Shown one piece after another: positions 1 to 46,612 of a stretch of 64,000 nt of DNA; position 1 is the stretch's first letter, and every line of letters begins with the position of its first letter. The notes beneath the pieces were generated by a model. The model was given only the letters and a program-made list of their open reading frames with translations. It had not been told where the DNA came from and did no database searches. This stretch comes from an uncultured Christensenellaceae bacterium (lineage in GTDB: Bacteria > Bacillota > Clostridia > Christensenellales > CAG-314): positions 129,987 to 193,986 of the forward strand of contig CAJUIV010000001.1 in assembly GCA_910586905.1 (NCBI GenBank). Direction: 5' to 3'. The position numbers were made by a program, and so were the translations under genes.

Positions 1-1
1 G

Positions 2-1150: not shown

Positions 1151-1154
1151 TAAG

Positions 1155-1775
1155 ATGAGAAAGTCAAAGAAATCGGACGACGTTTTGAACGTTGTCGACG
1201 AAACGACCGTCAAAGAAACGTCTGAAGTAAGCGAACCCGTTTTAAACGGCGATGCGGAAACGATTAAAGAATTTTTGCAGAACGTATTGGATAAAATGCA
1301 GTTTTCCTGCAAAGTGGAAGAAAAAGAAAGCGGCGAAGTTTTGTCGTTGGAAATAACCGGTGAGGACGCGTCTCACGCTATCGGTTACAGAGGCGAAACC
1401 TTGGACGCATTGCAATATATGTGCAATTTGCTGCTTGGAGGTAAAGAAAGCGGTTTTAAACGCGTTACGTTGGACGCCGAAGATTATCGCGCTAAGCGTG
1501 AAAAAATATTGCAGCGTTTGGCAGGTAACCTTGAACAAAAGGTAAAACGTACGGGGCGTGAAGTAAAACTCGAGCCGATGAATCCGTATGAAAGACGTAT
1601 AATTCATACCTCTTTACAGGGAAGCAAATACGTAACTACCGCAAGCGAAGGGCAAGGAAGCGCGCGGCACGTAGTAATAAGTCCTATCGGCCAAAGCGAT
1701 ATTTTGAACGCGCCGAACGCACCCAGAAAAACGTTGAATTTCGTTTACCGCAGCGAAAAGAAAAGACGCAGATAA
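1155..1775 (+). CDS. jag: Jag/KhpB RNA-binding protein (KH + R3H domains)
   Basis: GYRGETLDALQYM (KH-like) and MNPYERRIIHTSL (R3H) motifs. Conserved position directly after yidC. GAGG about 8 nt upstream of the ATG. Confidence 0.85.
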   Translation: MRKSKKSDDVLNVVDETTVKETSEVSEPVLNGDAETIKEFLQNVLDKMQFSCKVEEKESGEVLSLEITGEDASHAIGYRGETLDALQYMCNLLLGGKESGFKRVTLDAEDYRAKREKILQRLAGNLEQKVKRTGREVKLEPMNPYERRIIHTSLQGSKYVTTASEGQGSARHVVISPIGQSDILNAPNAPRKTLNFVYRSEKKRRR

Positions 1776-1800
1776 AAAAACAAAATTAAAGATTTATGTA

Positions 1801-1840
1801 AAAATGACTGACGATAATTTGCGTCAGTCATTTTATATTG
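1801..1840. terminator. Bidirectional intrinsic terminator after jag
   Basis: AAAATGACTGACG / CGTCAGTCATTTT 13-bp inverted repeat with U-runs on both strands. Confidence 0.75.
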
Positions 1841-1854
1841 CAATAAAATTAACT

Positions 1855-1974
1855 TTAAACTTCGACGGCAATATGCTCATCCTTTTGCTGCTCGGCGTAA
1901 ACGGTCTTGACTGAATCGGCAGATTTTGCCGTTGATTTGCAAACGCTGTTTTTCGCTTGCAGACCGACTGACAT
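1855..1974 (-). CDS. Possible 39-aa small protein (MSVGLQAKNSVCKSTAKSADSVKTVYAEQQKDEHIAVEV)
   Basis: ATG-to-TAA ORF below the ORF-track cutoff, host-like CG-rich codons. Ends just upstream of the bidirectional terminator at 1801-1840. Weak SD only. Confidence 0.3.
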   Translation of the reverse strand: MSVGLQAKNSVCKSTAKSADSVKTVYAEQQKDEHIAVEV

Positions 1975-2088
1975 TCCGCTATATGTATTCGTTTTGATTT
2001 TTAAAAGTCTGTTTGGTTAAAATAGCCGTTCACTCAGAATTTTTAGCGGTAAATGTACCGTTCCTCGTTTATGCGTATAAAGCTGACA

Positions 2089-2580
2089 TTATATTTTGTC
2101 TTTTAGCAAGTCGTAACGTTGCGAGACGGAGCGGACTACTTCATTGTTGGCTATCATGATTTGCAATTCGGCTTTCGATACCCACTTGGCGTTTATCGTT
2201 TCGTTTTTGTCCAATATGAGAGTTTGAACGTCCGCGTCTTTATTGACCAGATAAATATCCATAAAGTAATTTCGCTGTTTATATTCGAGTAAATACGTCA
2301 AATCGTTATCTGTTAAATCAACGCCGATTTCTTCTTTGACTTCCCGTACGGCTGCTTGCGTTGTAGTTTCGCCGGCGAGTACGCCGCCTCCGATAAATTC
2401 CCACAATCCTCCCGCTTTTTTGTTAGGATTACGTAGTGTAATCAACAATTCTCCTTTGGAATTTTTCAACCAGACTTCGCAGCAAACGTAATACTCTCCC
2501 TCTTTGAATTTGTCGCCTCTTAGTATCGTCCTGTTTTGAAATACTCTGTTTTTGTCGTATACGTCCCGATATTCGTCCAT
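2089..2580 (-). CDS. Nudix hydrolase
   Basis: Nudix box GGGVLAGETTTQAAVREVKEEIGV (GX5EX7REUXEEXGU pattern). Confidence 0.85.
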   Translation of the reverse strand: MDEYRDVYDKNRVFQNRTILRGDKFKEGEYYVCCEVWLKNSKGELLITLRNPNKKAGGLWEFIGGGVLAGETTTQAAVREVKEEIGVDLTDNDLTYLLEYKQRNYFMDIYLVNKDADVQTLILDKNETINAKWVSKAELQIMIANNEVVRSVSQRYDLLKDKI

Positions 2581-2617
2581 TATGTTGTCCTTTAAAAACG
2601 ATCTAATTGAAATTTTG

Positions 2618-3298
2618 TTATAACGGTTGTTTGCGCGGTTTGTTTTGATTTCTGGGATATTTCGGCGGGGTACGTTTGATTTTTTTGAATACCAATAAAC
2701 AGCGGTTGCTTCCGTCGGGCAATACGAATCTATGAGTTTTATCCAACGCTAAACCTAAAACGTTGCAAGCGTTTGAAGCGGAATTTAATTCGCTTTCGTC
2801 CGTTTTGTAAGCGATAACCGTTCCGCCTATTTTAACTGTTTGAGCGACGTATTCTAACAGAACCGGAAGCGGCGCAACTGCGCGCGCCGTCGCTACGTCG
2901 TAGCGTTCGCTGTGAGTTTTTGCAAAGTCTTCCGCTCTTTCGTGATAAAATTCAGCGCTTATTTGAAGCTTCTCGCATAGCGTACGCGTAAAGGAAATAC
3001 GTTTTTGTAAACTGTCTACGAGCGTTACGGTTATATCCGGACGTACGATTTTTAATGGTAAAGACGGGAAACCCGCTCCGCTGCCAATGTCGCACACTTT
3101 CGATTTTGGAGCTATGGCTATACTTCCCAACGCGCTGTCGGCAAAGTGTTTAACGTATATTTCGGTCGGTTCCGTAATGGCCGTTAAATTGTATTTTTCG
3201 TTTTCTTCGCGCAAATAATCACAGTACGTTTTAAATTGTGTTTGCATTATCTGCGTAAGGTCTACGTTTATTTGTTCTTTTAAAAATGCTTCTATCAT
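2618..3298 (-). CDS. rsmG: 16S rRNA (guanine527-N7)-methyltransferase RsmG
   Basis: SAM motif DIGSGAGFPSLPLKI and GidB-family length. Start moved to the internal ATG (MIEAFLKEQ) because the TTG at 3325 has no SD. Confidence 0.9.
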   Translation of the reverse strand: MIEAFLKEQINVDLTQIMQTQFKTYCDYLREENEKYNLTAITEPTEIYVKHFADSALGSIAIAPKSKVCDIGSGAGFPSLPLKIVRPDITVTLVDSLQKRISFTRTLCEKLQISAEFYHERAEDFAKTHSERYDVATARAVAPLPVLLEYVAQTVKIGGTVIAYKTDESELNSASNACNVLGLALDKTHRFVLPDGSNRCLLVFKKIKRTPPKYPRNQNKPRKQPL

Positions 3299-3567
3299 CT
3301 TGCGTTTTTCACCATGTATCAACAAATAATTATTTGTGAGTTATTTTGTTTGAAGCGAATATAAGTCTGCGTTTAAACCGTTCCGCAAAACGTTACGAAA
3401 GCGTGAACTCAAAAAAAATTTGTTATTTGTTCGACGCTTATTTCGGGTCTGCGCCTAAATATACTTAATACTGCTTAAAGTATTACTGCATATTGTATTT
3501 TGCGCAAGTAAGGCATTTAAAACTCACAACTTGTACGCTTAGCGTAAAGCTATTATAAAAAACGACT

Positions 3568-5421
3568 TTATTTTAAACCGCGTTGAGCCAAATATACGAT
3601 TAGAATCTGAACGTCCGCCGGAGATACGCCCAAAATCCTGCCTGCTTGTCCGAGATTTGCCGGACGTATTTTGTCGAGCTTTTGACGCGCTTCCAAACGC
3701 AGACCGTCAATAGACAAATAATCGATATCTGCGGGAAGAGATTTGTTTTCCAATTTGTTTGCTTGTTGTATTGCAACTCGTTCCTTTTCGATATAACCGC
3801 GATACTTGCTTTCAACTTCGATTTGATATAGCGCGTCGTCGTCTATGTCCGTTAAGAACCCTAACTTCTGTAAATCTTTAGCGGTAATATTCGCTCGGCG
3901 TAACATTTCGTCGACAGTTAATCCGGCATTGGTAACGGTTTCGTTTTTTTCTTCGAAAAGAGGCGAATATACTTTGGGCGACACCACTTTTGAAAGTTGT
4001 TTTTTTGCAAGTTCGATTTGGCGTACTTTTGCGGAATACTTTTGATATCGTTCTTCCGAAACCAATCCGATTTCATTTCCCAAATCGGTTAGACGCAGGT
4101 CTGCGTTATCTTGCCTTAAAATCAATCGGTATTCGGCGCGGCTGGTCATCATACGGTAAGGCTCGGTTGTTTCTTTTGTGGTTATATCGTCTATCAACAC
4201 TCCGATGTAACTGTTATCTCTACGCAGTGTAAACGGTTTTTTATTATGTACGTAACGCTCGGCGTTTATTCCGGCGATAATGCCTTGTCCCGCAGCCTCT
4301 TCGTAACCGCTTGTCCCGTTTATTTGTCCGGCAAAAAACATGCCGTTAATTTTTTTAGACATAAGGGTCGAATTCAGTTCCGTTGCGTCTATGCAGTCGT
4401 ATTCTATAGCGTATGCGTCGCGCATAATTTCTACGTTCTCAAGTCCATCTATACTGTGGTATATTTGTTCTTGGATTTCTGCGGGCATTGACGACGACGC
4501 GCCTTGAACGTAAAATTCGCACGTGTCTTCGGATTCCGGTTCGAGAAAAATTTGGTGCCGTTCTTTGTCGGCAAATCGTACGACTTTATCTTCTATACTG
4601 GGACAATAACGCGGACCTACGCCGTTTATTTCTCCGTTATAAATAGGCGCAAGTTGCTTGTTTTGTAAAATAATTCGTTTGGTTTCTTCCGAGGAATAAG
4701 TTAAATAACAGCTTCGTTTAGTTGCGGGTATACTTTCGGTGATATACGAAAAAGGTTTAACGTCGTTTTCTCCGCATTGTTCGGTCGTTTTGCTTAAGTC
4801 AATCGAAGTCATACGAACTCTTGCGGGTGTCCCCGTTTTAAACCGTTTAACCGTAAACCCCAAATCCAAAAGACTTTTAGTTAAATATTTGGCGTTTGCA
4901 AAACCGTTCGGTCCGCTTTCTCTTACGCATTTACCTACGATAGTTTTGGAATTTAAGTATACTCCGCAGCAGAGTACTACCGCTTTTGCATTATATCTTA
5001 AATCCACGGCGGTTGTAACGGTAAACGTCCCGTCGGAATCCCAATCGATATTTACGGCTTCGCCTTGGCGCAAATACAAGTTCGGGGTATTTTCAATAGT
5101 TTGCTTCATATGAACGTGATACGCGTTTTTGTCGACTTGGGCGCGCGGGGAATAAACCGCGGGTCCTTTGCCGCGATTTAACATACGCATTTGAAGTAAA
5201 CTTTTATCTGCGTTTACAGCCATTTCGCCGCCGAGCGCGTCGATTTCTTTTACTATTTGACCTTTGGCTGTTCCGCCTATGCTGGGATTGCACGCCAAAA
5301 AAGCAACCGTATCTAAATTGGTTGCCAATAGTAATGTCGAGCAGCCCAACCTTGCCGAGGCTAGAGCAGCTTCGCATCCTGCGTGTCCGGCGCCTATAAC
5401 TATAATGTCAAAGTTTTTCAA
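3568..5421 (-). CDS. mnmG: tRNA uridine 5-carboxymethylaminomethyl modification enzyme MnmG (GidA)
   Basis: N-terminal FAD fold DIIVIGAGHAGCEAA. Full-length GidA-like sequence, 617 aa. Confidence 0.95.
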   Translation of the reverse strand: MKNFDIIVIGAGHAGCEAALASARLGCSTLLLATNLDTVAFLACNPSIGGTAKGQIVKEIDALGGEMAVNADKSLLQMRMLNRGKGPAVYSPRAQVDKNAYHVHMKQTIENTPNLYLRQGEAVNIDWDSDGTFTVTTAVDLRYNAKAVVLCCGVYLNSKTIVGKCVRESGPNGFANAKYLTKSLLDLGFTVKRFKTGTPARVRMTSIDLSKTTEQCGENDVKPFSYITESIPATKRSCYLTYSSEETKRIILQNKQLAPIYNGEINGVGPRYCPSIEDKVVRFADKERHQIFLEPESEDTCEFYVQGASSSMPAEIQEQIYHSIDGLENVEIMRDAYAIEYDCIDATELNSTLMSKKINGMFFAGQINGTSGYEEAAGQGIIAGINAERYVHNKKPFTLRRDNSYIGVLIDDITTKETTEPYRMMTSRAEYRLILRQDNADLRLTDLGNEIGLVSEERYQKYSAKVRQIELAKKQLSKVVSPKVYSPLFEEKNETVTNAGLTVDEMLRRANITAKDLQKLGFLTDIDDDALYQIEVESKYRGYIEKERVAIQQANKLENKSLPADIDYLSIDGLRLEARQKLDKIRPANLGQAGRILGVSPADVQILIVYLAQRGLK

Positions 5422-5876
5422 GTTTATTTTTCCTTATGATAATCTGTCTGTTATGTTGTGTGTTCGATTGTATATAACGGTTTAGATTTGCATTTTTACT
5501 TGTAAATAAGTTTTCACTGTTAGTTGAATACTAACTTAGCGCTTTTTAATTGAAAACTGTTGTTTTAATGTTTTTCTATTTTATTGAACAATCTGCACCC
5601 GTTATGGCGTTTTGCTTTGATAGCGGTTTGCAATTGTACAAGTAAAGCCTTTAAAATTAGTAAGGTGCGCTTTAATTCTGTGTTATTTCATCCGAATTTC
5701 AAATAAAAATACAATAGAAAATGCAGCTTTTGTATTTTGTTCGACAAGGTTATTTTTTTATATTTGAATTCAGCTGAACGATTTTATATTATTATTTCTT
5801 ATTTTACGGCGCATCATGTATGATAAGTTTAGCCTTGCGCCGGTAAATTTTAATTTGCCGTCAGTTAGATTCTGGA

Positions 5877-7175
5877 TTATTTGCCTAAGCAGAATTTGCT
5901 GTAAATTCTATCTATTATTTCCTCTTGAGCGGTAGAACCCGTTATTTGTCCAAGCGTTTCCCAAACAAGTTTTAACGCGCTTGTTACAACGTCCAAAGTA
6001 GAATTATGACAATCGTTTATCGCGGCTTCGGTTTGATTTAAAGCCGATTGCAAACAGGAAAGGTGTCTTTCGTTTGTTATGAGTAAATCGGAGTTTTCTA
6101 TTTCGCCCGCGCTGAACATTTCGTATAACGTTTCTTTGATAATTTCCACGTTGCCCGACTTTGCCGAAACAGCCAGGCTATCTACACAGCACGGTTTGTT
6201 TTTAAATAAATCGCTTTTGTTATAAATTCTGATTTGCGGTCTAATCGTCGGATAAACAGACCTGTCTTGAGGGTCGTCTGTTACGTGCAGTACTACGTCG
6301 GCATTGTCGGCTGCTTTTTGCGCGCGCTTGACTCCCTCCTTTTCTACTATGTCGTTGGTATCTCGTATGCCGGCGGTATCGACGAAATTAAATTTTATAT
6401 CTTTGTAGTTTACGCTTTCTCTCAACGTATCGCGCGTCGTGCCTTGAATATCGGAAACTATCGCCCTATCCGAACCTAAAAGCGCGTTTAATAAACTGGA
6501 TTTCCCTACATTCGGCGAGCCTACTATGGCTACGTCTATCCCGTATTTTGCAACTTTGCCGAGAGTTGCCGTTGATAAAATAGATTTGAGTTCTGCGCGC
6601 ACGTTTTCCAGTTTGGTTTTTACTGTTGCGACCGTCGGAAGTTCCAGTTCTTCTTCGGGATAATCGAGAGCCGCCTCGCAGGAAGATGACAAATCTAGTA
6701 AAACGTCTTGCAGTTCCGCCACTTTTTTGCCCAATTTATTTTCAAGCAAATTTGCTCCGGCTTTTGCTGCCGAAGCGGTTTCGGCATCAATCATTTCGAT
6801 TATTCCTTCGGCGTTTGTTAAATTCTGTTTGCCGTTAATGAACGCCCGTTTACTGAATTCTCCGTTTTGCGCCGGTACCGCACCGTATTTTATACATTGT
6901 TCTATAACGGCTTGACATACCGCGGTTCCTCCGTGGCAGTGAAACTCGACGGTATTTTCTCCCGTATAAGAATGCGGCGCGTTAAAATAAACGCACATTG
7001 CGTGTTCGTCGAACACGGAAGTTTTAAGCGTTCCGACTTTGAGCATATTCGGCTGCGTCGGGAAAGGTTTGAAAAATTTTTTTGCAATGTTAATCGACTC
7101 GTCTCCGCTCATACGCACGACTGCAATGGCCGAACGTCCGCGCGCCGTCGATAACGCGACTATTGTTGTGTTCAT
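5877..7175 (-). CDS. mnmE: tRNA modification GTPase MnmE (TrmE/ThdF)
   Basis: G1 motif GSPNVGKSSLLN, DTAG, NKSD, and the C-terminal C-L-G-K tetrapeptide typical of MnmE. Confidence 0.95.
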   Translation of the reverse strand: MNTTIVALSTARGRSAIAVVRMSGDESINIAKKFFKPFPTQPNMLKVGTLKTSVFDEHAMCVYFNAPHSYTGENTVEFHCHGGTAVCQAVIEQCIKYGAVPAQNGEFSKRAFINGKQNLTNAEGIIEMIDAETASAAKAGANLLENKLGKKVAELQDVLLDLSSSCEAALDYPEEELELPTVATVKTKLENVRAELKSILSTATLGKVAKYGIDVAIVGSPNVGKSSLLNALLGSDRAIVSDIQGTTRDTLRESVNYKDIKFNFVDTAGIRDTNDIVEKEGVKRAQKAADNADVVLHVTDDPQDRSVYPTIRPQIRIYNKSDLFKNKPCCVDSLAVSAKSGNVEIIKETLYEMFSAGEIENSDLLITNERHLSCLQSALNQTEAAINDCHNSTLDVVTSALKLVWETLGQITGSTAQEEIIDRIYSKFCLGK

Positions 7176-7703
7176 AGTACACCCGATAAATTGAGGTTGT
7201 TTTTATTTTAACACTTTGCGATAAAAACGACAAGTTGTTTTAAGCGCCGTTTTGAATTTCGTTTTATACGTAAGATGTTGAGATGTGTTTAAGTAAATCT
7301 ATATTATGTTAGTAATAGTACAAGTTTGTGCGTTTAAGTAATATATTTTGTATTTAATATAACCTAATATGTGTATTTTATATAAATTTTAGATTTGTTT
7401 GAAAATGCGGAGTCGAGACTTGCCGCTTAGAGAATAGTTAGATTTTATATAAAATAATATATATTGTTGTAAAAGTTTTTATTTTATGCTATAATAAAGC
7501 AATCAATCAAGTTTAACTGCGCTTATTTGGTTTTTTGTTACATCGTATCACGTTTCTTGGTGAAAGTTCTAAGCAAACGTTATTCATATACGATATAATG
7601 GAAGTTAACGATAGATTTTTAACGTCGTATAATTGAGGCATAAACATTGACGCCTCGATTGTATATGGCGATGTGTTTTTCATTTTGTCTTTGGAGAATT
7701 GAT

Positions 7704-8471
7704 ATGAGTAAAATTTTCGCTTTTTCCAATCAAAAAGGCGGGGTCGGTAAGACCACGACTGCAATAAATTTGGCTACGGACGTGGCTCGTCTCGGTAAAA
7801 AAGTTTTGCTTTTAGACTTTGACCCGCAAGGCAACGCTACCAGCGGTTTTGGAATCGAAAAAAATCAGCTGGAGTTTACTTGCTACGATATGCTTATGGA
7901 AACTTGTGAAGCCAAACAAATTATTTTGCCAACGATGATAGATAACCTGTCTATCATTCCCAGCAACATCGATTTGGCTGCCGCCGAAGTCGATTTGGTT
8001 AACGTGCCGTCTCGCGAAAGCGCTTTAAAGCGCGCATTGTCCGCCATTCAAAACGATTACGATTATATATTTATCGATTGCCCTCCAAGCTTGGGCTTGA
8101 TAACTTTAAACGCTTTGGTTGCTTGCACCGGAGTTATAATTCCCATACAAAGTGAGTTTTTTGCTTTGGAAGGGTTAAGTCAGTTGATGAACACGATAAA
8201 AATCGTTAAACAACGGTTAAATCCGCAAATTTATATTAACGGCGTCATTTTGACGATGTACGATACGCGTACGACGATGTCGAAACAGGTTACGGCGGAA
8301 ATATATAAGTATTTCGGAGACAAAATTTATACCGTGCCAGTGCCGAGAAATATTAAACTGGTAGAATCTCCGAGTTTCGGAGTGCCGGTTATATTGCACG
8401 CGCCTCATTGCAGCGGCGCTTTGGCTTACGATGCTTTAGCTAAACAATTTTTAAGCAGAGAGGAAAATTAA
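7704..8471 (+). CDS. parA: ParA/Soj chromosome partitioning ATPase
   Basis: Deviant Walker A NQKGGVGKTT. Start set at ATG 7704 (GGAG 9 nt upstream) rather than the track start 7647. Confidence 0.9.
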   Translation: MSKIFAFSNQKGGVGKTTTAINLATDVARLGKKVLLLDFDPQGNATSGFGIEKNQLEFTCYDMLMETCEAKQIILPTMIDNLSIIPSNIDLAAAEVDLVNVPSRESALKRALSAIQNDYDYIFIDCPPSLGLITLNALVACTGVIIPIQSEFFALEGLSQLMNTIKIVKQRLNPQIYINGVILTMYDTRTTMSKQVTAEIYKYFGDKIYTVPVPRNIKLVESPSFGVPVILHAPHCSGALAYDALAKQFLSREEN

Positions 8472-8473
8472 AA

Positions 8474-9400
8474 ATGGCTAACAAAGGATTAGGCAGAGGC
8501 TTTGCCTCTTTGATGGGATTGAACGATATAGACGATTTTACACAGCCGTCGCAAACGGTACCTGCTGAGAATATCGAAACGCCGAACACCAACGACGGAG
8601 TGGTAAATATATCTTTGCTTGATATCGACCCCAATTATGAACAGCCGCGTAAGAATTTTGACGAAGACGCTTTGGCTGAATTGGCGGACAGTATAAAGCT
8701 TCACGGAGTTATTCAGCCTATTGTTGTAACGCCTATAGGTAAGCGTTTTATGATAATAGCCGGTGAACGTCGTTTTCGTGCAAGTAAACTTGCCGGGAAA
8801 CGAGATATACCCGCTATAATTAGACATTATACTTCTCAACAAATCAAAGAAATCAGTTTGATAGAAAATTTGCAGCGCGAAGACTTGTCTCCTATAGAAG
8901 CGGCGCGCGCAATCAGAACTTTGATGACGGAATTTAATATGACGCAGGAAGTTGCCGCCGATAGAATAGGTAAAAGCCGTTCTGCAGTTGCCAATACTTT
9001 GAGACTGCTTACTTTGAGCGACGACGTTATCGCTTTGATAGAGCAAGGAAGATTGTCTGCGGGGCACGCACGTACTTTGGTTGTTATTCCTCGCGACCAG
9101 CAGTACAAGTTGGCTCTTAAGGGGTGCGATAATCAGTTGACCGTTAGAGAAATGGAAAAATTGGTTAGAGAGTTCCTTAATCCTAAACCCGAAAAACAAA
9201 AACCTGTTATGCAGGAAAGCAAAGAGCTTGTGAGTTTGGTAGGAAATATGCAACGCGCGTTCGCGACCAAGGTTTCCGCTTTGGGAAACGGCAACAAAGG
9301 TCGAATTTATATTGATTACTACACTGCCGATGATTTGGATAGAATTTGTAATTTGGTTGAAGATTGGATGAGCGATAAGTTCCGTAAAAACGCTGAATAA
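8474..9400 (+). CDS. parB: ParB/Spo0J partition protein
   Basis: GERRFRA box and an HTH region (QEVAADRIGKSRSAVANTLRLL). Immediately follows parA. Confidence 0.9.
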   Translation: MANKGLGRGFASLMGLNDIDDFTQPSQTVPAENIETPNTNDGVVNISLLDIDPNYEQPRKNFDEDALAELADSIKLHGVIQPIVVTPIGKRFMIIAGERRFRASKLAGKRDIPAIIRHYTSQQIKEISLIENLQREDLSPIEAARAIRTLMTEFNMTQEVAADRIGKSRSAVANTLRLLTLSDDVIALIEQGRLSAGHARTLVVIPRDQQYKLALKGCDNQLTVREMEKLVREFLNPKPEKQKPVMQESKELVSLVGNMQRAFATKVSALGNGNKGRIYIDYYTADDLDRICNLVEDWMSDKFRKNAE

Positions 9401-9409
9401 ATATTTTAG

Positions 9410-9441
9410 AAACGCTTTGATTTTTCAAAGCGTTTTTTTTT
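9410..9441 (+). terminator. Intrinsic terminator after parB
   Basis: AAACGCTTTGA-TTTT-TCAAAGCGTTT hairpin followed by a T-run. Confidence 0.8.
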
Positions 9442-10092
9442 GTTGAAACAGAATTTTTAAAATCGGGATTTTTCTTCTTCGATATAGTTATCAAACAAAA
9501 AATCGCGAATAATTATGTTATAAAAGGTGGCTGAAATAGACGTTTAGACAGAATTTTAGAGTGCTTGTCCGAAAAAATCCGAGCAAATTTAGGCTCATTC
9601 TGCGAGCAAAAAAGAAATAATTCTATAAAATATTCATTTTTATAATAAATAATGAATTACAATTCATTTTTAGACTTAATTTTGATACATTGTATTGTTT
9701 TAAAATATTTTAATAAACGGTTGCTAAGCATTCGTCAATAGCATAAGAAAAGTTGTATTTTGCAGCTTGAACTAATAGAAAAGTCAACCTAGGCTATTTA
9801 TTTTTGACTTCTAAAATTAAGAGAAAATAGCAAACGAACTAATTTACTTACTTACTGCTGCTTTGTGTTGAATTACATTTGATGTATTAATCGTTGAAGT
9901 AAAGTAATTTTGAGACGTTTGTAAAGTACGCTTGAAATTGATTTATATAAAAAATTTGAGCAGAACAACTGATTAGTTTTGTGTGGTCTAATCAAAATTA
10001 TTTATTGATTTCCTTTTAATACAATCGCGTTATTTTTATTCTTTCATTGGGCCGAGTATAAAAAGAATAGTATCAATACTCTGCTTTGACAA

Positions 10093-10108
10093 TGTTTCAT
10101 ATGAAACG
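10093..10108. promoter_or_regulatory. Degenerate parS-like site TGTTTCATATGAAACG
   Basis: 13/16 match to the B. subtilis parS consensus TGTTNCACGTGAAACA. The palindrome is retained with a CATATG core. Confidence 0.4.
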
Positions 10109-10165
10109 GAAGCATTGCTCTGTGCGTTTTTGTAGGCATAATTTGATTGTTTTGTTTGATTAACT

Positions 10166-10181
10166 TGTTCCACGTGAAACA
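10166..10181. promoter_or_regulatory. parS site TGTTCCACGTGAAACA
   Basis: 16/16 match to TGTTNCACGTGAAACA. Confidence 0.8.
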
Positions 10182-10243
10182 TTGGATTCGTTGATATGAA
10201 GCTTGATAGAAGCTCAAAACTAGGCTTGAGGAACGCATTAAAT

Positions 10244-10259
10244 GGTTTCACGTGAAACA
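10244..10259. promoter_or_regulatory. parS site GGTTTCACGTGAAACA
   Basis: 15/16 match. Perfect 14-bp palindromic core GTTTCACGTGAAAC. Confidence 0.75.
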
Positions 10260-10410
10260 AAATTAAGGAAATAATCGGTTAAAACCCTTGAAATATTGGA
10301 ATTTTAAAGCAAAAAGTACGGTTTTTTTAAAAAAAGTTTAGAAAAAGATAAAAGAAAATAGCCTTTGATAATGTTCAAAGACTATTTCTGTAGAAGAAGC
10401 ATTCCTAATT

Positions 10411-11139
10411 TTATGCTATAACAGCCAAATTTAATAAATCAATATTGAAAAATTGAGCGATGTAGGAACCTATCAGATTGGTATTGTGAGCAAATTTAAA
10501 TAATATCGAATCTGCAACTAATTGCATGAGCGTGCTTTGAAAATTCGGGATAAACTTTATGATAACTATTTCGCAAACCGTAAGCACCAATGAGATTACG
10601 ATTAAGTACGTTATAGCAACCGACCAAACCAGACCGAATATTCTGTCAAGCGTACGCAGTACCGGTAATTTTGCAATTTTGCCAAGCAAACATTTTATTC
10701 CTAATAAAGAATACTTAAGCGCTAACAGTAAAATAATCCAAAGAAAAAAACTAACGATAAAGCTAGCCGTTAAATGCCCGAAATATGCTCCTAATGTAGT
10801 TGCGCCTACGCTTTGCATCGCATTAAACATTTTATCGGAAATACTTTGCAGTATTCTCAAAAAGCTTTGCTCCAAAACGGCGTTCAAATCTTCTGCACTG
10901 GCTATTGCCATTGTATAGTATTCTTTGCTGAACCAACCACCGGCCGCTTCTGCAAGTTGTTTAAATATATTCGTCGATTTTAGCAAAGGCATCAAAAGCA
11001 CAACTAGTCCTATAGAACCGAAAAAAGCTATAAAACCGCAGAGTCCTTTAGAAAATTCTTTCGAAAACCCCTTTATAACGCCTACTATAATAGCAATCAG
11101 AAAAATAATCGCTAAGGATATATCGGCTATATTTCCCAT
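10411..11139 (-). CDS. CvpA-family integral membrane protein
   Basis: N-terminus ADISLAIIFLIAIIVGVIKGF and multiple TM helices typical of CvpA. AGGAGG SD upstream. Confidence 0.6.
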   Translation of the reverse strand: MGNIADISLAIIFLIAIIVGVIKGFSKEFSKGLCGFIAFFGSIGLVVLLMPLLKSTNIFKQLAEAAGGWFSKEYYTMAIASAEDLNAVLEQSFLRILQSISDKMFNAMQSVGATTLGAYFGHLTASFIVSFFLWIILLLALKYSLLGIKCLLGKIAKLPVLRTLDRIFGLVWSVAITYLIVISLVLTVCEIVIIKFIPNFQSTLMQLVADSILFKFAHNTNLIGSYIAQFFNIDLLNLAVIA

Positions 11140-11155
11140 AAAATCCTCCTAATAA

Positions 11156-11169
11156 TGAACGTATGTTCA
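11156..11169. promoter_or_regulatory. SOS(Cheo)-box-like palindrome TGAACGTATGTTCA
   Basis: GAAC-N4-GTTC core of the Gram-positive LexA operator (CGAACN4GTTCG). Embedded in a perfect 10+10 inverted repeat at 11151-11174, 5 nt upstream of the cvpA-like SD. Confidence 0.3.
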
Positions 11170-11811
11170 TTATTGTCAAAACCGGTTATATTGAATACTT
11201 AAGAATAATCTGATTATATTCTTAATTGATTTTTGCCGCTGCGTTTTTCGCTTGTTTATCGGTTAAATCCCGTACGAACTGTTTTTTTTTGTAAATATTA
11301 TCTTACGTATAAGCAGAAACTGTTTGCAGGAATAAACTTCTTTAAACGGCTTTATCGCTATCAATTCTTCTGCAAAAATCAAAGACAAATCTAACCGAGG
11401 TCATTGATATTCTAAGTATATCATAATTATATCCAAAAATAAAGTAATTTACAAATTTACAGCGCTTTTGATTGTATTATATTATTGTTATATTTTGGTT
11501 CCGCTGCTTTGTATTACAATAAATATATATTAAAAATTAAATCGGTATGCGATTTTGCATATGTATTTAAAGCAATATCTCGGATTATTCGCGCTTAAAA
11601 AAGCCGGGACTTGTCAAGAGAAATAACGGACATTATATTTAAATAACAGATTTTCATTTTCGGTAATACTTGCTTTATTGTTGTGTGAATTGATTTAAAT
11701 AATCGATATTTCGACAAAATTCGGCGGTTTTTTGTTTCGGTGGAATTAAATTCGTAAATAATTTTTTTGTCTTACGTCAACAATTTATAAAAACCCAAAG
11801 GAGTAAGAAAA

Positions 11812-12324
11812 ATGGTAGAGGTAAGCGTTTATAATCAGCAGGATAAGGCAAAATTAACGCAGGCAATCAAGGGCAAAATAACGAATCCCGTATTTATGTG
11901 TATAGGAACTGAAAAAGTATTTTCGGATAGTCTCGGGCCTAGAGTAGGCAGTTTGTTAAACGACGGTATGCAAAACCCCGTTTTCGTTTACGGAATGTGC
12001 GACCAAAATATAACTGCGGAAAATCTGTGTCATAGTTACAATTTTATCAAAGCTATGCATCCGGACAGTCAAATAGTCGTGGTAGACGCGGGAGTAGGAG
12101 GATACGAACAAATCGGTAAAATCCAGCTTTGCGACGGAGGCTTGATTCCCGGAGCGGCGACTAACAAAAATTTACCGTCAGTCGGAGACGTCGGAATAGT
12201 CGGTATAGTCGCAGAGCGCGGAATGAGCGATTTTTATACGTTAAATTCAACTAAAGATAAACTTGTCGGAGCCGTCGCGCAGTTCATTGCTGACGCGATA
12301 TTGGACGCAACGCAATACGCGTAA
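11812..12324 (+). CDS. yyaC: YyaC-family putative sporulation protease
   Basis: CIGTEKVFSDSLGPRVG, VVVDAGVG and GLIPGAATNKNLPSVGD match my recollection of conserved blocks in B. subtilis YyaC. Confidence 0.75.
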   Translation: MVEVSVYNQQDKAKLTQAIKGKITNPVFMCIGTEKVFSDSLGPRVGSLLNDGMQNPVFVYGMCDQNITAENLCHSYNFIKAMHPDSQIVVVDAGVGGYEQIGKIQLCDGGLIPGAATNKNLPSVGDVGIVGIVAERGMSDFYTLNSTKDKLVGAVAQFIADAILDATQYA

Positions 12325-12814
12325 CGATTGTGCGGAAAGTCAACTTTACAAGTTAAAAGCAAAAGGCGGCGCAATAAATTGCTGTCGGTACGAAATTATA
12401 CGAAACAGGCAACTATATTTAAAGTTTTCGGACGATATAAGAGTGCGTTAACTTTTGCAAGCCGACAATTTTTCAAAAAAGAAAAACCGCTAGCTGCGGA
12501 CTCTTTCAAGCGCGGGCAATAATCAAAACGCGCGCGGGCTTTCGCAAAAAAGCAATTATTAAATCCGTTCGATTGTTTCTTATTGTTGTTCGAAGCGAAT
12601 TTTTAAGCAATGTTCAAGCGAACGTATATATAATAAAGTATACTAAGGGAAAAAATTCTAAGTTTTCTATTATACTTAGCGCAAATAAAGTATCCTCAAC
12701 TGCAAATACTATATAATGCTCTGCATGTGCGGTATTTGCATTTAACTTGAATTGCAGATATTTTTGAAAAGCGTTATCAGTATAATAATTAGCGGCGTTT
12801 TAGGCGGCTAAAAT

Positions 12815-12843
12815 TTGACACTTTTTTGCCCGTATGGTAAAAT
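12815..12843 (+). promoter_or_regulatory. Sigma-A type promoter upstream of ftsH
   Basis: TTGACA - 17 nt - TAAAAT. Confidence 0.5.
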
Positions 12844-12896
12844 ATCTAAATTAACGATAATTTTAGTATTACTTTGTTAAAACGTTGTCGCTTTTT

Positions 12897-14990
12897 ATGC
12901 GACGCAAAAGGAGAAACGATTTGAATCAAAAGCGTAGAGGAATTATATATTCGATAGTCGCCGTGGTTTGTCTTATCGCAGTGTTTTTGATAGTTTGGCA
13001 GGTTCTCGGCAATTCGGCTAAAGAAATAGACGAAAACGTATTTAAAGAAAATTTTAACAGTTACGTTAAAGTTAACCTTAATTATTATAAAGTAATTTGC
13101 GTTGACGAAAACGGACAAAAGTATTCTTTTACCATTGTAGACAGAAACGAACTTGACGACTTTATCAAGGCGGGTATTTACAATACAAGCAACGCCAATA
13201 AACCCGTTCCGGATAAGGACGCGGATGGCAACGTTATAGTTATCGTTCCGGAAGGCTACCCCAAAGCTCCGTACGCTAACGCCAAATTGTGCGAAGCAGG
13301 ACAATACCGTCCCGCCGATCCCAACGCCACAAGCTGGACGGATTACATCGTCCCCGTTTTGTGGATTGGTCTGCTTATTTTGATGGGCGTACTTATGTTC
13401 CGTCAAATCGCGAAGCAAAATAACCAAAATATGGATTTCGGCCGTTCGCGCGCAAAAGCCGTACAAAATATTAAAATCCGTTTTACTGACGTGGCCGGAG
13501 CGGAAGAAGAAAAAGAAGAACTGCAGGAAATCATTGATTTCTTGAAAGACCCCAAAAAGTTCAGCGATATGGGCGCGCGCATACCCAAAGGCGTATTGCT
13601 CGTAGGTCCTCCGGGAACGGGTAAAACTTTGTTCGCTAAAGCCGTAGCCGGCGAAGCGGGCGTTCCGTTCTTTTCAATGAGCGGTTCCGACTTTGTCGAG
13701 ATGTTCGTAGGCGTAGGCGCAAGCAGAGTAAGAGATTTGTTCGACCAAGCCAAGAAAAATATGCCCTGTATTATTTTTATTGACGAAATCGACGCCGTAG
13801 GACGTCAGCGTGGAGCAGGTCTGGGCGGCGGACACGACGAACGCGAACAAACTTTAAACCAGCTGCTTGTAGAAATGGACGGTTTCGAAACGAGTACCAA
13901 CATAATAGTTATGGCTGCGACAAACCGCGCGGATATTCTTGACCCTGCGCTTTTACGTCCCGGCCGTTTCGACAGGCAAATTTACGTTAACCGTCCCGAC
14001 GTACGCGGAAGAGAGGCTATTCTTAAAGTTCACGCGCGTAAAAAGCCTATCGGTCCGGATGTCAATTTCCGTACGGTTGCCCGTATAACGGCAGGATTTA
14101 CCGGCGCGGACCTTGAAAATCTTTTAAACGAGGCTGCAATACTTGCCGTAAGAGGCGGACGCCGCGTTATTACAATGGCTGACGTAAACGAAGGTATAAA
14201 CAAAGTAGTCATGGGACCGCAAAAGAAATCGCGTCTTGTAACCGAACCCGACAAGCGCATTACCGCTTATCACGAATCGGGACACGCTATTTTGGCTTGC
14301 AGTTTAAAATACTGCGACCCCGTTCACGAGGTTACGATTATACCTCGCGGAATGGCGGCGGGCTATACTATGACGCGCCCCGAAAACGACAACAACCACG
14401 TAACCAAACAACAGTTGTTGGATCAAATAACGATGACTCTCGGCGGACGCGTTGCGGAAGAACTTATTATAAAGAACATAAGCAGCGGAGCAAGCGGAGA
14501 TATCAAGTCTCTTACTCAAACGGCGCATCAAATGGTTACCGAGTGGGGTATGAGCGAGCGTTTGGGACCTCTTTTCTACGGTAGCGACGGCGAAATTTTT
14601 GTGGGAAGAAGCTATCAGCAGGAAAAAGGTTACTCCGACGAGATAGCTAACATAATCGACGAGGAAGTGCGTGAAATCGTAGACGAATGTCATAAACGCG
14701 CGACCAAACTGCTTACGGAAAAAATCGACGTTCTGCACAATATGTCGCGCGTGCTTATTGAAAAGGAAACTATCCATACCGAAGAAGTAGATATGCTTAT
14801 GCAAGGTAAACCGGTGGAAGAAATCATCGCCTATATGGAAAGTAAAGAAGCGGGCGCCGCCGAAACGACTTTGGCGGATAAAGAATCCGAGAATAAAGCG
14901 GAATCTGTAAAAGAAAACGAAGAACCGAAAACAGAAAAAAGCCCGAACGCCGATAAAGAATCCGAAAAAGACGACGAAAATAAAAAATAA
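12897..14990 (+). CDS. ftsH: ATP-dependent zinc metalloprotease FtsH
   Basis: Walker [12 protein letters not shown] region, HESGHA zinc site, two N-terminal TM segments. The start is ambiguous: ATG 12897, or a TTG 24 nt further downstream behind AAGGAG. Confidence 0.95.
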
Positions 14991-15243
14991 TATATAACAT
15001 AATACGCTTTAGTAAAATCCGTTGTTTTACAAAGCGTATTTTAATTTTTGAAAGCAGTTTTTATCCGCCGAGGCGTTTGTCGATAAACAACAATAAAAGC
15101 AGTATCGTGCCGAAACGTATTTCAACGAAGTTTCAGCTTGCAGTAACCGTAAGAATATTTGTTGGCACAATCTAAAAAGTATGATATACTATACGCACTA
15201 TATTCGTCGGAATTGACTTTCGGCGGATAAAACGGAGATTTAT

Positions 15244-43874: not shown

Positions 43875-43951
43875 CTGGGTGTAGCGCAGTTTGGTAGCGC
43901 ACAAGACTGGGGGTCTTGGGGTCGCTGGTTCAAGTCCAGTCACTCAGACCA
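43875..43951 (+). tRNA. tRNA-Pro (anticodon GGG), CCA encoded
   Basis: Hand-folded cloverleaf: acceptor CTGGGTG/CACTCAG, D arm GCGC/GCGC, anticodon stem CAAGA/TCTTG with loop CTGGGGG, T arm GCTGG-TTCAAGT-CCAGT, discriminator A plus CCA. Confidence 0.9.
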
Positions 43952-43962
43952 AATTAACCAAA

Positions 43963-43988
43963 AGCACCGTAAAAACGGTGCTTTTTTG
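43963..43988 (+). terminator. Intrinsic terminator after tRNA-Pro
   Basis: AGCACCGT-AAAA-ACGGTGCT followed by T6. Confidence 0.75.
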
Positions 43989-43994
43989 CTGTTA

Positions 43995-44018
43995 TTTAGG
44001 GGCAAATTTAGGGGCAAA
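43995..44018 (+). repeat. Tandem 12-bp direct repeat TTTAGGGGCAAA x2
   Basis: Two perfect adjacent copies between the tRNA terminator and the recombinase remnant. Confidence 0.9.
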
Positions 44019-44041
44019 ATAATGGGCTTTTTCAAAAGGGG

Positions 44042-44440
44042 TCAAAAGCGGAATTTTGTAGCTTCTTCCTGTTCGAATTTATCTAATATTTTAATATAGT
44101 ATTTGTTGGTTGTTTCGGTCTTTGTATGTCCCATCCATTTGGCAATAACCTTTTGAGATATGCCCTGCTCCGCGCATCGCGTTCCGAACGTAGTTCGGAG
44201 ATCCTTTATTTTGTAATTCGTTTTATTGTTTTCGTTTAATCTTCGGATAAAAGTTTTAAGTGCTTCATACGTAACCGTTCCTATTAGCAGGGGTTTGTTG
44301 TTGGATAAGTCGGTTTTAAGTAATTCGAGGCCTTTAACAAAGACGGGTATTATATGTTTGCAGTTTTATTAATTCGGTTTTCTCGCCGTTTTCATCAAAT
44401 AGTATTCTTTTCGGCTCAACGCCTTTTATTGTAAAAGACA
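44042..44440 (-). pseudogene. Tyrosine recombinase (phage integrase) remnant, N-terminally truncated and frameshifted
   Basis: My translation: MSFTIKGVEPKRILFDENGEKTELIKLQTYN, then a frame change to IPVFVKGLELLK...KIKDLRTTFGTRCAEQGISQKVIAKWMGHTKTETTNKYYIKIL. The DLRxT, GH and terminal Y blocks of the catalytic domain are present. The Arg-I region is absent. Confidence 0.6.
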
Positions 44441-44450
44441 TAATTACCTC

Positions 44451-44684
44451 CTACAATTTAATAGTCAACGTAGAACCGGACAAAACGAACGTGGCATCGA
44501 ATTTGGCTTGGACTTCGTTTAGAACGTCCTCCTTTAAAGCGTCCATTGTCTGCTTGTTAAGCGGCGTGCCTTGCTCGGTCGGATTATCCGCAAAGGTGAT
44601 ATCGTAAGTAGTGCGAGATTTCGTTTGCACGTCCTCTAAAATAACTCTACCCGGATTAGTTGCTTTTCTGTCTTTGAATTCCAT
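44451..44684 (-). CDS. Hypothetical 77-aa protein, resembles the N-terminal segment of Firmicutes phage tail-fibre/baseplate proteins
   Basis: The pattern FKDRKATNPGRVILEDV...ADNPTEQGTPLNKQTMDAL recalls the conserved ...PNR...GTPLN... N-termini of such proteins. From memory, not searched. Confidence 0.4.
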   Translation of the reverse strand: MEFKDRKATNPGRVILEDVQTKSRTTYDITFADNPTEQGTPLNKQTMDALKEDVLNEVQAKFDATFVLSGSTLTIKL

Positions 44685-44720: not shown

Positions 44721-44763
44721 AAAGACGGCACAAAGGTACTTTAATACCTTTATGCCGTCTTTA
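44721..44763 (-). terminator. Intrinsic terminator downstream of the immunity gene
   Basis: AAAGACGGCACAAAGGTA / TACCTTTATGCCGTCTTT long hairpin, U-rich on the minus-strand side. Confidence 0.6.
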
Positions 44764-44835
44764 CTGTCCTCGTTTTCGGGATCTTTTCTTGGCGTATAAA
44801 GTCAAATTATGCATTTGATTTGAGTTGCAACAACA

Positions 44836-45168
44836 TCATTCAATAAGTTCAAGTATAATGCCCTTAGCAACTTTACTTTTACCTTCATACAATTCAAATC
44901 CTGCATTCATTTGCATTAATTCTTGTGGCGCACTTTCTGATAAATACTTAATCTCTGCAATACTTATATGTCCTTTAATGCTTTTATTATGCACCACACA
45001 AGTCCACAAAGGGACTGTTGACACATTATTATCCCAAATGGGAACATTATACTGATTATCGAATACTATTATTGGATTATATATCCAATCGTTATATTTT
45101 TTTTTAGATACTGCTGGTATTTCTTTTCTAGAAATAAACCACTCTATCTGCACCTTTGCTATTTTCAT
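44836..45168 (-). CDS. Putative cognate immunity protein of the Hint-toxin cassette
   Basis: 110 aa with no signal peptide. ATGA overlap with the toxin stop codon. Same AT-rich, CG-poor composition as the toxin tip. Confidence 0.55.
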   Translation of the reverse strand: MKIAKVQIEWFISRKEIPAVSKKKYNDWIYNPIIVFDNQYNVPIWDNNVSTVPLWTCVVHNKSIKGHISIAEIKYLSESAPQELMQMNAGFELYEGKSKVAKGIILELIE

Positions 45169-46151
45169 AAAATTCTCCTAAAACCCAACATAACCTTATT
45201 TAAATATGTATAATGTGCACTATAAGCCTTTCCGATACCGTCTAATGCATAATTATAATATTGCATTCCTTTTAAACTGCTAGTTGCGACTCTAATTTCT
45301 ACAACATTGAAATTTCCGCTTCCCATCATTTTGTTTCCCCATGTAACTGCATCATCAATAGACGTCGCCATAAACTTATCTTGCATTGTACCAAGCTTAT
45401 GCTTAAATCTTCCATGCTTTGTAAGACTTCCATATTCGGCATCTGACATTGCACGATACAATTTGGTTTCACAATTCTTATTATGTACCAACACACCTGT
45501 TTCAACGTAGTAGGTATGGAAATCCTCTACTTCAAAGTTGTAGGTAGTTTGGGGTGTTTCGTAGTGTATAGAGCGAGTGGCTTGTATTTGGGCTAGTTGT
45601 CCGTCGCTGAGCAGTACCGTATCGCCCGCTTTTAAATCTTGTGCAGATACCCATTGTTTGGTTAGCGGTAAGTAGTACTTATGTCCAGGGGTCGAAACTA
45701 TTTCTTTATCGTTGACCTTTACGCCCACCCAGTCCTTGCTTTCGTTACGAAATAAGCGTACCACTGTTTTGTAGGCTTGTTCGCCCGTTTCCTCATTGTA
45801 GGCTAATACTTTATCTCCGACTTGTACGGCTTCTATATTCTTTGTTCCGTCTTCGCAATGTACTAGTGTCCCAGCTATAAAGCAATACCCTGCACATTCC
45901 GCCAACTCTTGCGCAGGATTCGCATTGGCGCGACTGACGTACTTTATTGTGCTTACACATGTAGAGATAAAGACGAATACTCCTGTAATAAAGAGAGCAT
46001 CAGCAAGAGTTTCTTCCAACTCATCCGTATTCCACTTTCCGCTTATTGCAGAACTTATTGCCCAACCCGCTACTGCAAAGCCAATTCCTATAGATACTTC
46101 TATTAACGCAACTTTTGCTGCCGCAGCCAATGCAGAGACTCCGCCCAACAA
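45165..46151 (-). CDS. Orphan polymorphic-toxin C-terminal cassette: hydrophobic TG-containing region - Hint (PT-HINT) domain - unassigned toxin tip of about 95 aa
   Basis: Hint signature CFIAGTLVHCEDGTKNIEAVQVGDKV...FHTYYVETGVLVHNKNC. Two hydrophobic helices upstream (FITGVFVFISTCV). No N-terminal secretion/trafficking domain. TTG start doubtful. Confidence 0.7.
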   Translation of the reverse strand: MLGGVSALAAAAKVALIEVSIGIGFAVAGWAISSAISGKWNTDELEETLADALFITGVFVFISTCVSTIKYVSRANANPAQELAECAGYCFIAGTLVHCEDGTKNIEAVQVGDKVLAYNEETGEQAYKTVVRLFRNESKDWVGVKVNDKEIVSTPGHKYYLPLTKQWVSAQDLKAGDTVLLSDGQLAQIQATRSIHYETPQTTYNFEVEDFHTYYVETGVLVHNKNCETKLYRAMSDAEYGSLTKHGRFKHKLGTMQDKFMATSIDDAVTWGNKMMGSGNFNVVEIRVATSSLKGMQYYNYALDGIGKAYSAHYTYLNKVMLGFRRIL

Positions 46152-46612
46152 CTGCGCTTCCGGTCCTATTGACGCGCCGCCTGTTGCAACCGCTATACCT
46201 ATTGATGCTATAACCAGTATAGTACCTGCTAACGCTTTCTCCCACGCAGGAATACTTCGCCACCAAGAGCCTATTGTTCCTCACATTCTATCCCACCAAG
46301 TTTGCCCGGGATCATATGCAGGATCTTCGTGCCTCTCCGTTACGGGAAATGCCGTATACGGGCTGCTTTCAAGTGCAAGGGGATTATAGTATAAAGTACA
46401 ACTCCTGTCAATACGCCTTGGCAAATCTGCATTCTCTATTACGGTAGATAAGGGTGCGGCGTCTAAAATTGCCGCTTGCCAACAAGAATAAAATCGTATA
46501 TAATTATATTGTATAAAAAAGTCAATTTGTTCGTCGACTAAGCTTTATAGCTGCGCGAGATATGCGCGATTCGTCGGATTTTTCGGTCTGTGATATTTCG
46601 GAGGCTAAAATT

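Follow-up and report, generated by a model that had tools for sequence, protein, structure and literature searches.

What does a bacterial toxin act on when its active end matches no described family, and can the immunity gene beside it tell? The question is raised by a toxin gene with a Hint domain, and the small gene directly downstream of it, in a 64,000-nucleotide stretch of DNA from an uncultured Christensenellaceae bacterium (contig CAJUIV010000001.1, positions 129,987 to 193,986 of the forward strand; hereafter the window). The two genes form a strain-variable operon, made up of promoter, toxin gene, immunity gene and terminator, in a mouse-gut Clostridia bacterium. The C-terminal tip of the toxin has a predicted ADP-ribosyltransferase fold, and the immunity protein belongs to a family derived from domain III of the elongation factor EF-Tu. 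This combination suggests that the toxin recognises EF-Tu.

A toxin tip and its EF-Tu-like immunity protein

The pair consists of the features below. Coordinates are positions in the 64-kb window, and toxin residue numbers refer to the 373-amino-acid (aa) protein.

45165..46286, minus strand: toxin gene, 373 codons in sister strains; codon 2 (46283-46281) is TGA here and TGG there
45480..45884, minus strand: Hint / PT-HINT autoprocessing domain, from Cys135 (CFIAGT) to His268-Asn269
45168..45470, minus strand: toxin tip, residues 273-373, with a predicted minimal ADP-ribosyltransferase fold and conserved R278, E284, K304, W316, D349 and G352
44836..45168, minus strand: immunity gene, 110 aa; it overlaps the toxin stop by ATGA and has an AGGAG ribosome-binding site of its own

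A preliminary description of the locus, made from the DNA letters, had reported the toxin reading frame and a 110-aa frame overlapping it by ATGA, and both were found on the minus strand where it had placed them. Its complete Hint domain was also recovered. PT-HINT (PF07591) matched in Pfam with an E-value of 3e-27 over model positions 1-136 of 137, at 95.9 bits vs a cut-off of 27.7. The domain has an N-terminal Cys and a C-terminal His-Asn (CFIAGT ... VHN).

The same description could not assign the tip to any toxin family, and by sequence this held: no usable match for the ~100-aa tip was found in Pfam, NCBIfam, PHROGs or PDB, and tblastn against plasmids and phages gave no match. A word-indexed search with the tip returned three close relatives only. 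A profile search of 1.84 billion representative proteins returned 481 tip clusters at E<=1e-3 and 109 at E<=1e-10. Of the 150 best matches, which are proteins of 70-2522 aa, 149 carry the tip at their very C-terminal end. Long members were tested against Pfam, and RHS repeats were present in five of six, with SpvB/TcdB Tc-toxin domains in one. At one locus (L003), a full-length RHS-like protein ends in the same arrangement of helix, Hint and tip, while orphan tip copies preceded only by the end of a Hint domain were seen at L001/L009 (Christensenella sp.) and L008.

Tip conservation was counted in a 64-sequence alignment. D349 and G352 were invariant (64/64 each), E284 and K304 were each found in 63/64 sequences, W316 in 62/64, and R278 in 61/61 where present. 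T308 (49/64) and E330 (33/64) were less constant. An AlphaFold2 model of the tip, built from the alignment, had a predicted local distance difference test (pLDDT) score of 93.4. Its leading Foldseek matches in PDB were almost all proteins with an ADP-ribosyltransferase fold, headed by Tpt1/KptA and CC0527 (E-values 6e-4 to 5e-3, with Tpt1/KptA at 6e-4). The best query-normalised TM-score among the leading PDB matches, 0.60-0.61, belonged to RhsP2. TreTu (7ZHL) aligned with a TM-score of 0.52/0.49 and a root-mean-square deviation of 3.0 over 88 columns, and cholera toxin, LT, ParT and RES were further matches. Among viral models (BFVD), the named matches were mostly mycobacteriophage ADP-ribosyltransferase, DarT and RNA 2'-phosphotransferases. 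Judging by these models, the tip very likely has the ADP-ribosyltransferase fold and would represent a new minimal family within it. For NAD+-dependent transferase activity we lean only slightly towards a yes.

Membership in the TreTu family was considered and rejected at the sequence level. Pfam TreTu_C (PF24691) drew weak, sub-threshold matches from five of the 64 tip members (best E-value 0.0039), no member reached the Pfam cut-off, the window tip did not match the model, and the tip profile missed 7ZHL.

The immunity protein became recognisable once its family was assembled. A single-sequence search found three proteins, and a profile of six sequences found 135. Pfam GTP_EFTU_D3 (PF03143) was matched by 34 of the 82 aligned members (best E-value 3.8e-8), with no match from the window's own protein taken alone. 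The family matched only bacterial EF-Tu models in NCBIfam, and its profile aligned to EF-Tu chains in PDB at residues about 303-391. When the family was compared by hhalign with two EF-Tu domain III sequences, the probability was 95.9%, with an E-value of 6e-9 over 89 columns. Shared motifs are (E)GGR, Y-x-P and F-x-L-x-EG-x-K-x-V-x-x-G, the last of which reads FAIREGGRTVGAG in EF-Tu. The AlphaFold2 model of the immunity protein was an all-beta barrel (pLDDT 93.1), and throughout the 50 PDB fold matches listed for it the chains were EF-Tu, eEF1A or eRF3, at TM-scores of 0.47-0.59. At the family level, the immunity protein is established as a stand-alone homologue of EF-Tu domain III. Structure prediction of the tip and the 110-aa protein, which the preliminary description had proposed as a check, thus gave an ADP-ribosyltransferase fold for one and an EF-Tu domain III-like barrel for the other.

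Tip and immunity genes travel together. Starting from the immunity protein, 14 genome loci were found, and nine of them carry the tip directly upstream. The nine come from Christensenella, Acetivibrio, Fervidicella, Erysipelotrichaceae, Candidatus Coproplasma, Acidobacteriota, Entotheonellaceae and an unclassified metagenome-assembled genome (MAG); the other five are stand-alone immunity genes or follow a truncated Hint. The reverse approach used 72 informative metagenome loci that had been picked by the tip alone and belong to a distant subfamily with ~35% identity to the window tip. An immunity domain was encoded no more than 150 nucleotides (nt) downstream of the tip in 67 of these loci, and slightly further downstream, behind a partial tip match, in three more. 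Across phyla, tip and immunity protein are close to an obligate gene pair, as expected of a cognate toxin and its immunity protein. The conservation of the pair in other genomes to which the preliminary description had looked was thus encountered, in many genomes, and the same tip was also seen on full-length RHS toxins.

A 218-aa protein (P0127) that starts with an immunity-like EF-Tu domain III barrel and finishes with a tip-like domain was considered as Rosetta-stone evidence. The fusion may be real, or two genes may have been merged in calling; the protein was set aside because its domains stand in the reverse of the gene order and because it may reflect faulty gene calling within a cassette array.

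At L016, L017, L020 and L022, stand-alone genes of the EF-Tu domain III type have retained the EGGR motif but have no tip gene nearby; at L020, the domain forms the end of a 410-aa open reading frame (ORF). These genes may be orphan immunity genes or may have another role.

Possible target of the toxin

The explanation we favour, and consider probable as a whole, is an exported toxin with an ADP-ribosyltransferase fold that acts on or through EF-Tu and is countered by a decoy immunity protein. The hydrophobic N-terminus would direct membrane insertion or export, leaving the C-terminal part outside the cell. Hint would cut the tip free, and the tip would enter the cytoplasm of a neighbouring competitor, where it would use NAD+ to ADP-ribosylate EF-Tu and so block translation. 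Alternatively, EF-Tu might serve the tip as a platform or activator: the tip would dock on domain III and act on a substrate held by EF-Tu. In the producer, the immunity protein would be a non-modifiable decoy sitting on the EF-Tu-binding or catalytic face of the tip. Export, Hint release, action in the cytoplasm and immunity binding are carried over from what is known of polymorphic toxins (PMC3482391). Recognition of EF-Tu through domain III is proposed because of the ancestry of the immunity protein and a weak link to TreTu. Whether EF-Tu is the target or an obligatory partner of the toxin is, in our analysis, a finely balanced matter, perhaps just short of probable. More tentatively, recognition of EF-Tu domain III could extend to a widespread class of at least 481 clusters, from gut Clostridia to soil bacteria, with an immunity protein that arose from a captured 3' part of tuf and works by target mimicry.

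The closest known system is TreTu-TriTu (Salmonella Rhs-main; PDB 7ZHL/7ZHM). TreTu is, like the present tip, a minimal polymorphic-toxin tip of ~100-113 aa with an ADP-ribosyltransferase fold (PMC9825190). Both have an Arg on strand 1 and a Glu six residues later on helix 1, the spacing of R6/E12 in TreTu. Both are linked to EF-Tu: TreTu has it as its target, and the present immunity protein descends from it. However, TreTu uses R-H-W without a catalytic acid, whereas the present family conserves R, E, K and D, and TriTu is a flat five-stranded sheet with two helices, in contrast to the all-beta, EF-Tu domain III-like barrel found here. RhsP2 (Pseudomonas aeruginosa), Tre23 and TreThr are likewise RHS C-terminal tips with a downstream immunity gene, but RNA targets are known for them, their sequence identity to the tip is ~10%, and their immunity proteins are unrelated. 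Tpt1/KptA and CC0527 (H-H-h clade) were the top Foldseek matches, and CC0527 is similar to the tip in size. They differ in being housekeeping or uncharacterised enzymes with no immunity partner, and the Tpt1 tetrad is absent from the tip.

Homology to EF-Tu domain III extends along the whole immunity protein, but this protein stands alone at ~100 aa and has neither a G domain nor a domain II. Among antibacterial toxins, several are known to bind EF-Tu or to modify it (CdiA-CT EC869/NC101, Tse6, Serratia Rhs2, Doc), yet in the accessible parts of the reports on them none comes with an EF-Tu-like immunity protein. Doc phosphorylates EF-Tu at Thr382, in domain III. No EF-Tu-like immunity protein and no tip motifs were found in open-access papers and bioRxiv preprints, where absence is not proof, and neither Pfam nor NCBIfam holds a model for the tip family or the immunity family. 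EF-Tu is not mentioned in the accessible part of the 2012 polymorphic-toxin catalogue (PMC3482391). We found the pairing of an ADP-ribosyltransferase-fold tip with an EF-Tu-like immunity protein to be undescribed. The kind of system is already known, since NCBI names one cluster member a 'polymorphic toxin-type HINT domain-containing protein'.

Several points weigh against action on EF-Tu. Activity and target of the tip are matters that we infer from sequence and models. No canonical R-S-E, H-Y-E or H-H-h triad is apparent in the tip; E330 occurs in only 33/64 members, and the invariant acid, D349, sits in a loop before strand 5. Foldseek gave the tip modest E-values (6e-4 to 1e-2), and both of the best-matching folds, Tpt1 and RhsP2, have RNA and not protein as their substrate. 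The EF-Tu residue that TreTu modifies, D21, belongs to the G domain and not to domain III, and the fold of TriTu differs from an EF-Tu-like barrel (PMC9825190). The window's immunity subfamily has lost the EGGR motif of EF-Tu domain III, and an EF-Tu-derived barrel could merely be a convenient binding scaffold. Secretion is an assumption, because no recognised export signal was found.

The RNA-directed activity of the best fold matches, joined by the RNA 2'-phosphotransferases and DarT among the viral ones, leads to the rival that fares best, although we think it unlikely. The tip would then ADP-ribosylate tRNA or another structured RNA, or transfer a 2'-phosphate as Tpt1/KptA does. The likeness of the immunity protein to EF-Tu would reflect docking on the EF-Tu·aminoacyl-tRNA complex, or would say nothing about the target. 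EF-Tu domain III contacts the T-stem of aminoacyl-tRNA, which counts for this explanation. So does the existence of small Rhs ADP-ribosyltransferases that modify tRNA or rRNA (PMC13617354, PMC8661411). However, the catalytic R-H-R-R tetrad of Tpt1 is not among the conserved R, E, K and D of the tip family, and an RNA target by itself leaves the EF-Tu-domain immunity genes in 67 of the 72 tip-selected loci without an explanation.

An NAD(P)+ glycohydrolase that kills by NAD+ depletion, with an immunity protein that only plugs the active site, is less likely still. Rhs toxins of this activity and fold exist, according to a preprint on Tne5 (10.64898/2026.01.26.701734), and the apparent lack of a canonical transferase triad would fit. 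Such an enzyme needs no macromolecular target, though, and there would be no reason for its immunity protein to derive from EF-Tu; the nearest fold matches are transferases.

A strain-variable operon and its nonsense allele

The remaining features of the operon and of its exchangeable part are as follows.

46383..46411, minus strand: promoter TTGACA, 17-nt spacer, TATAAT; 12/12 consensus positions (sigma-70), kept in sister strains
46292..46297, minus strand: ribosome-binding site GGTGGG, 5 nt ahead of ATG 46286, read off the sequence
46045..46286, minus strand: constant N-terminal region (codons 1-80, hydrophobic helices), 97-100% identity between alleles with different toxins
45885..46044, minus strand: last hydrophobic helix and linker, the left recombination zone; alignable to other alleles, with ~63% nt identity to ~45936
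44793..44797, no strand: right end of the strain-variable cassette, where homology with other alleles resumes
44721..44762, minus strand: terminator-like hairpin, then UUUUAAUUU; 19 bp, -30 kcal/mol, z -9.7, in the flank common to all alleles

With its own promoter, ribosome-binding sites and terminator-like hairpin, the unit is a self-contained operon. Parts of the toxin gene are spanned by short contigs with 100% identity that come from mouse-gut runs classed as RNA, one of which is metatranscriptomic; this is weak evidence for its transcription.

Other cassettes were found by looking up the 77-aa neighbour gene in other strains. The operon occupies a slot between a 5'-nucleotidase-like gene and the 77-aa, SIS and NTP-transferase genes, and other strains of the species carry other cassettes there. 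The commonest type, with 19 further similar places, encodes a 214-aa protein and a 111-aa Imm40 (PF15569) protein. Another encodes a 244-aa protein with an LHH/HNH-like end and a 207-aa protein. All alleles start MWGTIGSWWRSIPAWEK. Nucleotide identity of the other alleles to the window is 97-100% over the first 240 nt and ~63% from 46044 down to ~45936. Below that point there is none until 44797-44793, just beyond the immunity stop. Because identity breaks at 46044 and 44797, the exchanged cassette measures ~1.25 kb (about 44797-46044); it holds the last hydrophobic helix, Hint, the tip and the immunity gene. Three alleles share one slot with a constant N-terminus and unrelated C-termini and immunity genes, which is the polymorphism looked for in such systems, and the locus is almost certainly a polymorphic toxin and immunity pair.

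This organisation is that of PT-HINT polymorphic toxins as surveyed by Zhang et al. 2012 (PMC3482391): a constant N-terminus, a variable C-terminal toxin with Hint just before it, an adjacent immunity gene, and alleles that differ between strains. The alternative alleles here also use known parts (Imm40, LHH-like nuclease). The N-terminal domain differs in not being among the trafficking domains listed there. Pfam recognised no trafficking domain (signal peptide, LXG, WXG, PAAR, TPS or RHS) in the toxin N-terminus, only hydrophobic helices were apparent, and a metagenome scan with the constant N-terminus as query returned no relatives. In the Kyte-Doolittle profile, the constant part has three to four hydrophobic helices once the gene is started at ATG 46286, more than the two given in the preliminary description. 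The pre-toxin TG domain suspected there drew no Pfam match at E-values up to 10 (N-terminal 129 aa).

The start of the gene explains why an N-terminus had seemed to be missing. Counted from the first TTG, the minus-strand ORF covers 45165..46151 (328 aa). The frame is open from that TTG upstream to 46280, where it meets TGA at 46283-46281, itself preceded by ATG 46286. Sister-strain gene calls start at this ATG and give 373 aa. Nine contigs from other samples with the same immunity protein could be compared at codon 2. Seven of them read ATG TGG GGA, with the gene called as 373 aa, or as 419 aa where the frame is open further upstream. ATG TGA was present only in the window and in one contig (L026) among the contigs compared. 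The TGA is the derived state, because the alternative alleles at the slot also have TGG at codon 2. In the cluster table, the shortened 321-aa call appears in 13 contigs and the 373- or 419-aa forms in 13 contigs; the nonsense allele is therefore real and common. Reading TGA as Trp (genetic code 4), prompted by one database protein beginning 'MW', was rejected because the toxin ends at TGA, the other ORFs are normal under table 11, and the sister strains have TGG.

Because of the stop at codon 2, translation could yield no more than a protein shortened at its N-terminus and begun at TTG codon 44 or 53. From the reading frame, the full-length toxin of the window copy is probably not produced. 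The immunity gene is intact in the window despite the nonsense codon in the toxin gene, and the strain has likely kept the immunity and lost the weapon. In L025 and L030 (1745-1885), the frame is open for 46 codons beyond the ATG and through the promoter, which yields the 419-aa gene call. The extra residues of these calls (..EDPAYDPGQTWWDRMWG..) resemble a segment after the RHS part in L003, and the upstream extension may be a relic of a longer ancestral toxin.

These results bear on the proposal of the preliminary description, that of a displaced orphan cassette without a trafficking N-terminus, kept as recombination stock for a full-length toxin elsewhere in the genome. We consider it improbable. 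The failure to find LXG, WXG, RHS or signal-peptide domains, the resemblance of the region around the start to the segment behind the RHS part in L003, the true orphan copies elsewhere (L001, L008) and the stop at codon 2 would all fit. But the cassette has its own promoter with 12/12 consensus positions, ribosome-binding site and ATG, its 80-codon N-terminus is 97-100% conserved over three unrelated alleles and common to all of them, and the ORF is an intact 373 aa in most strains that carry it. No second Hint gene, and no full-length toxin sharing the Hint region, was found in the 64-kb window, in which the only other tblastn match had an E-value of 0.076. The missing N-terminus was an artefact of the nonsense codon at position 2. 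What stands is a polymorphic toxin with a cognate immunity gene downstream; the label of an orphan does not.

The preliminary description had also read the base composition as a sign that toxin tip and immunity gene are swapped together. The low CpG content it reported for 44821-45540 is real: we counted 12 CG dinucleotides against its ~11, the lowest value of all 720-nt windows in the 64 kb (mean 58, 5th percentile 32). Observed/expected CpG is ~1.0 over the toxin gene and 0.42 in the immunity gene, vs 1.6-2.1 in flanking genes. GC content is 0.46 in the N-terminus, 0.43 in Hint, 0.35 in the tip and 0.31 in the immunity gene, and GC at third codon positions is 0.25-0.33 in the operon vs 0.44-0.51 in neighbouring genes. 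The foreign operon stands out because the host is enriched in CpG. In the 64-kb window CpG is strongly enriched for a GC content of 41%, at an observed/expected ratio of ~1.9 overall. Exchange itself is visible between strains, as proposed, but its junction lies at ~46044, upstream of Hint, and not at the Hint/tip border. The GC drop at that border may record an older exchange in a donor lineage.

Surroundings of the operon and meaning of the pair

Downstream of the operon lie the following features.

44451-44684, minus strand: conserved 77-aa ORF
44040-44347, minus strand: C-terminal integrase fragment
43875-43951, plus strand: tRNA-Pro(GGG)

The tRNA gene is followed by an 11-bp terminator-like hairpin and then by a tyrosine integrase of which only a C-terminal piece is left (phrog_1, model positions 360-447 of 611). 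From its sequence, the stretch 43875-44347 is a remnant of an integrative element. After the integrase fragment, sister strains carry a T5orf172/MUG113 gene (L026, L027) or, in L025, a Rep_1/IS91-like gene. The 77-aa ORF had no family match; it occurs in many more contigs than the operon does, irrespective of the cassette beside it. A 35-aa ORF lies just downstream of it, and in L029 the 77-aa ORF is followed by a 231-aa gene. ORFs resembling YidC/Jag, MnmE, MnmG and ParA/ParB, judged from their translations only, occupy window positions 1-9400 and suggest that the window is near the chromosomal replication origin.

At L001/L009 (Christensenella sp. MAG), a large serine recombinase and AbiH adjoin an array of toxin pieces at 7500-15000. 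The array is made up of a truncated Hint followed by the same tip and an immunity gene, two further small ORFs, and then a 303-aa Gly-rich protein that has PT-HINT and a different tip. The tRNA-Pro and integrase fragment next to the operon, and the AbiH gene and serine recombinase near its relatives in L001, could speak for a toxin-antitoxin module that works inside the cell (addiction or abortive infection) and sits on a degraded integrative element, in place of an exported weapon, but this is very improbable given the Hint domain and membrane helices upstream of the tip, the same tip at the end of RHS and Tc-toxin-like proteins of up to 2522 aa, and an allelic polymorphism typical of competition toxins.

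Polymorphic toxins with small ADP-ribosyltransferase tips are under active study. To our knowledge, each new family of such tips (Tre1, Tre23, TreTu, TreThr, RhsP2) has revealed a new way to stop an essential process. The family described here is large and is covered by neither a Pfam nor an NCBIfam model, and the ancestry of its immunity partner points to EF-Tu. Because of this ancestry of the immunity protein, the tip domain comes with a directly testable hypothesis of target and neutralisation. For the mouse-gut species, three alleles with mapped junctions, one of them with an intact immunity gene but a stop at codon 2 of the toxin, would be useful for the study of strain competition in the gut. 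If recognition of EF-Tu by the exported toxin is true, it would reveal a new vulnerable site on EF-Tu, and the immunity family would, as far as we have found, be the first shown to descend from the toxin's own target.

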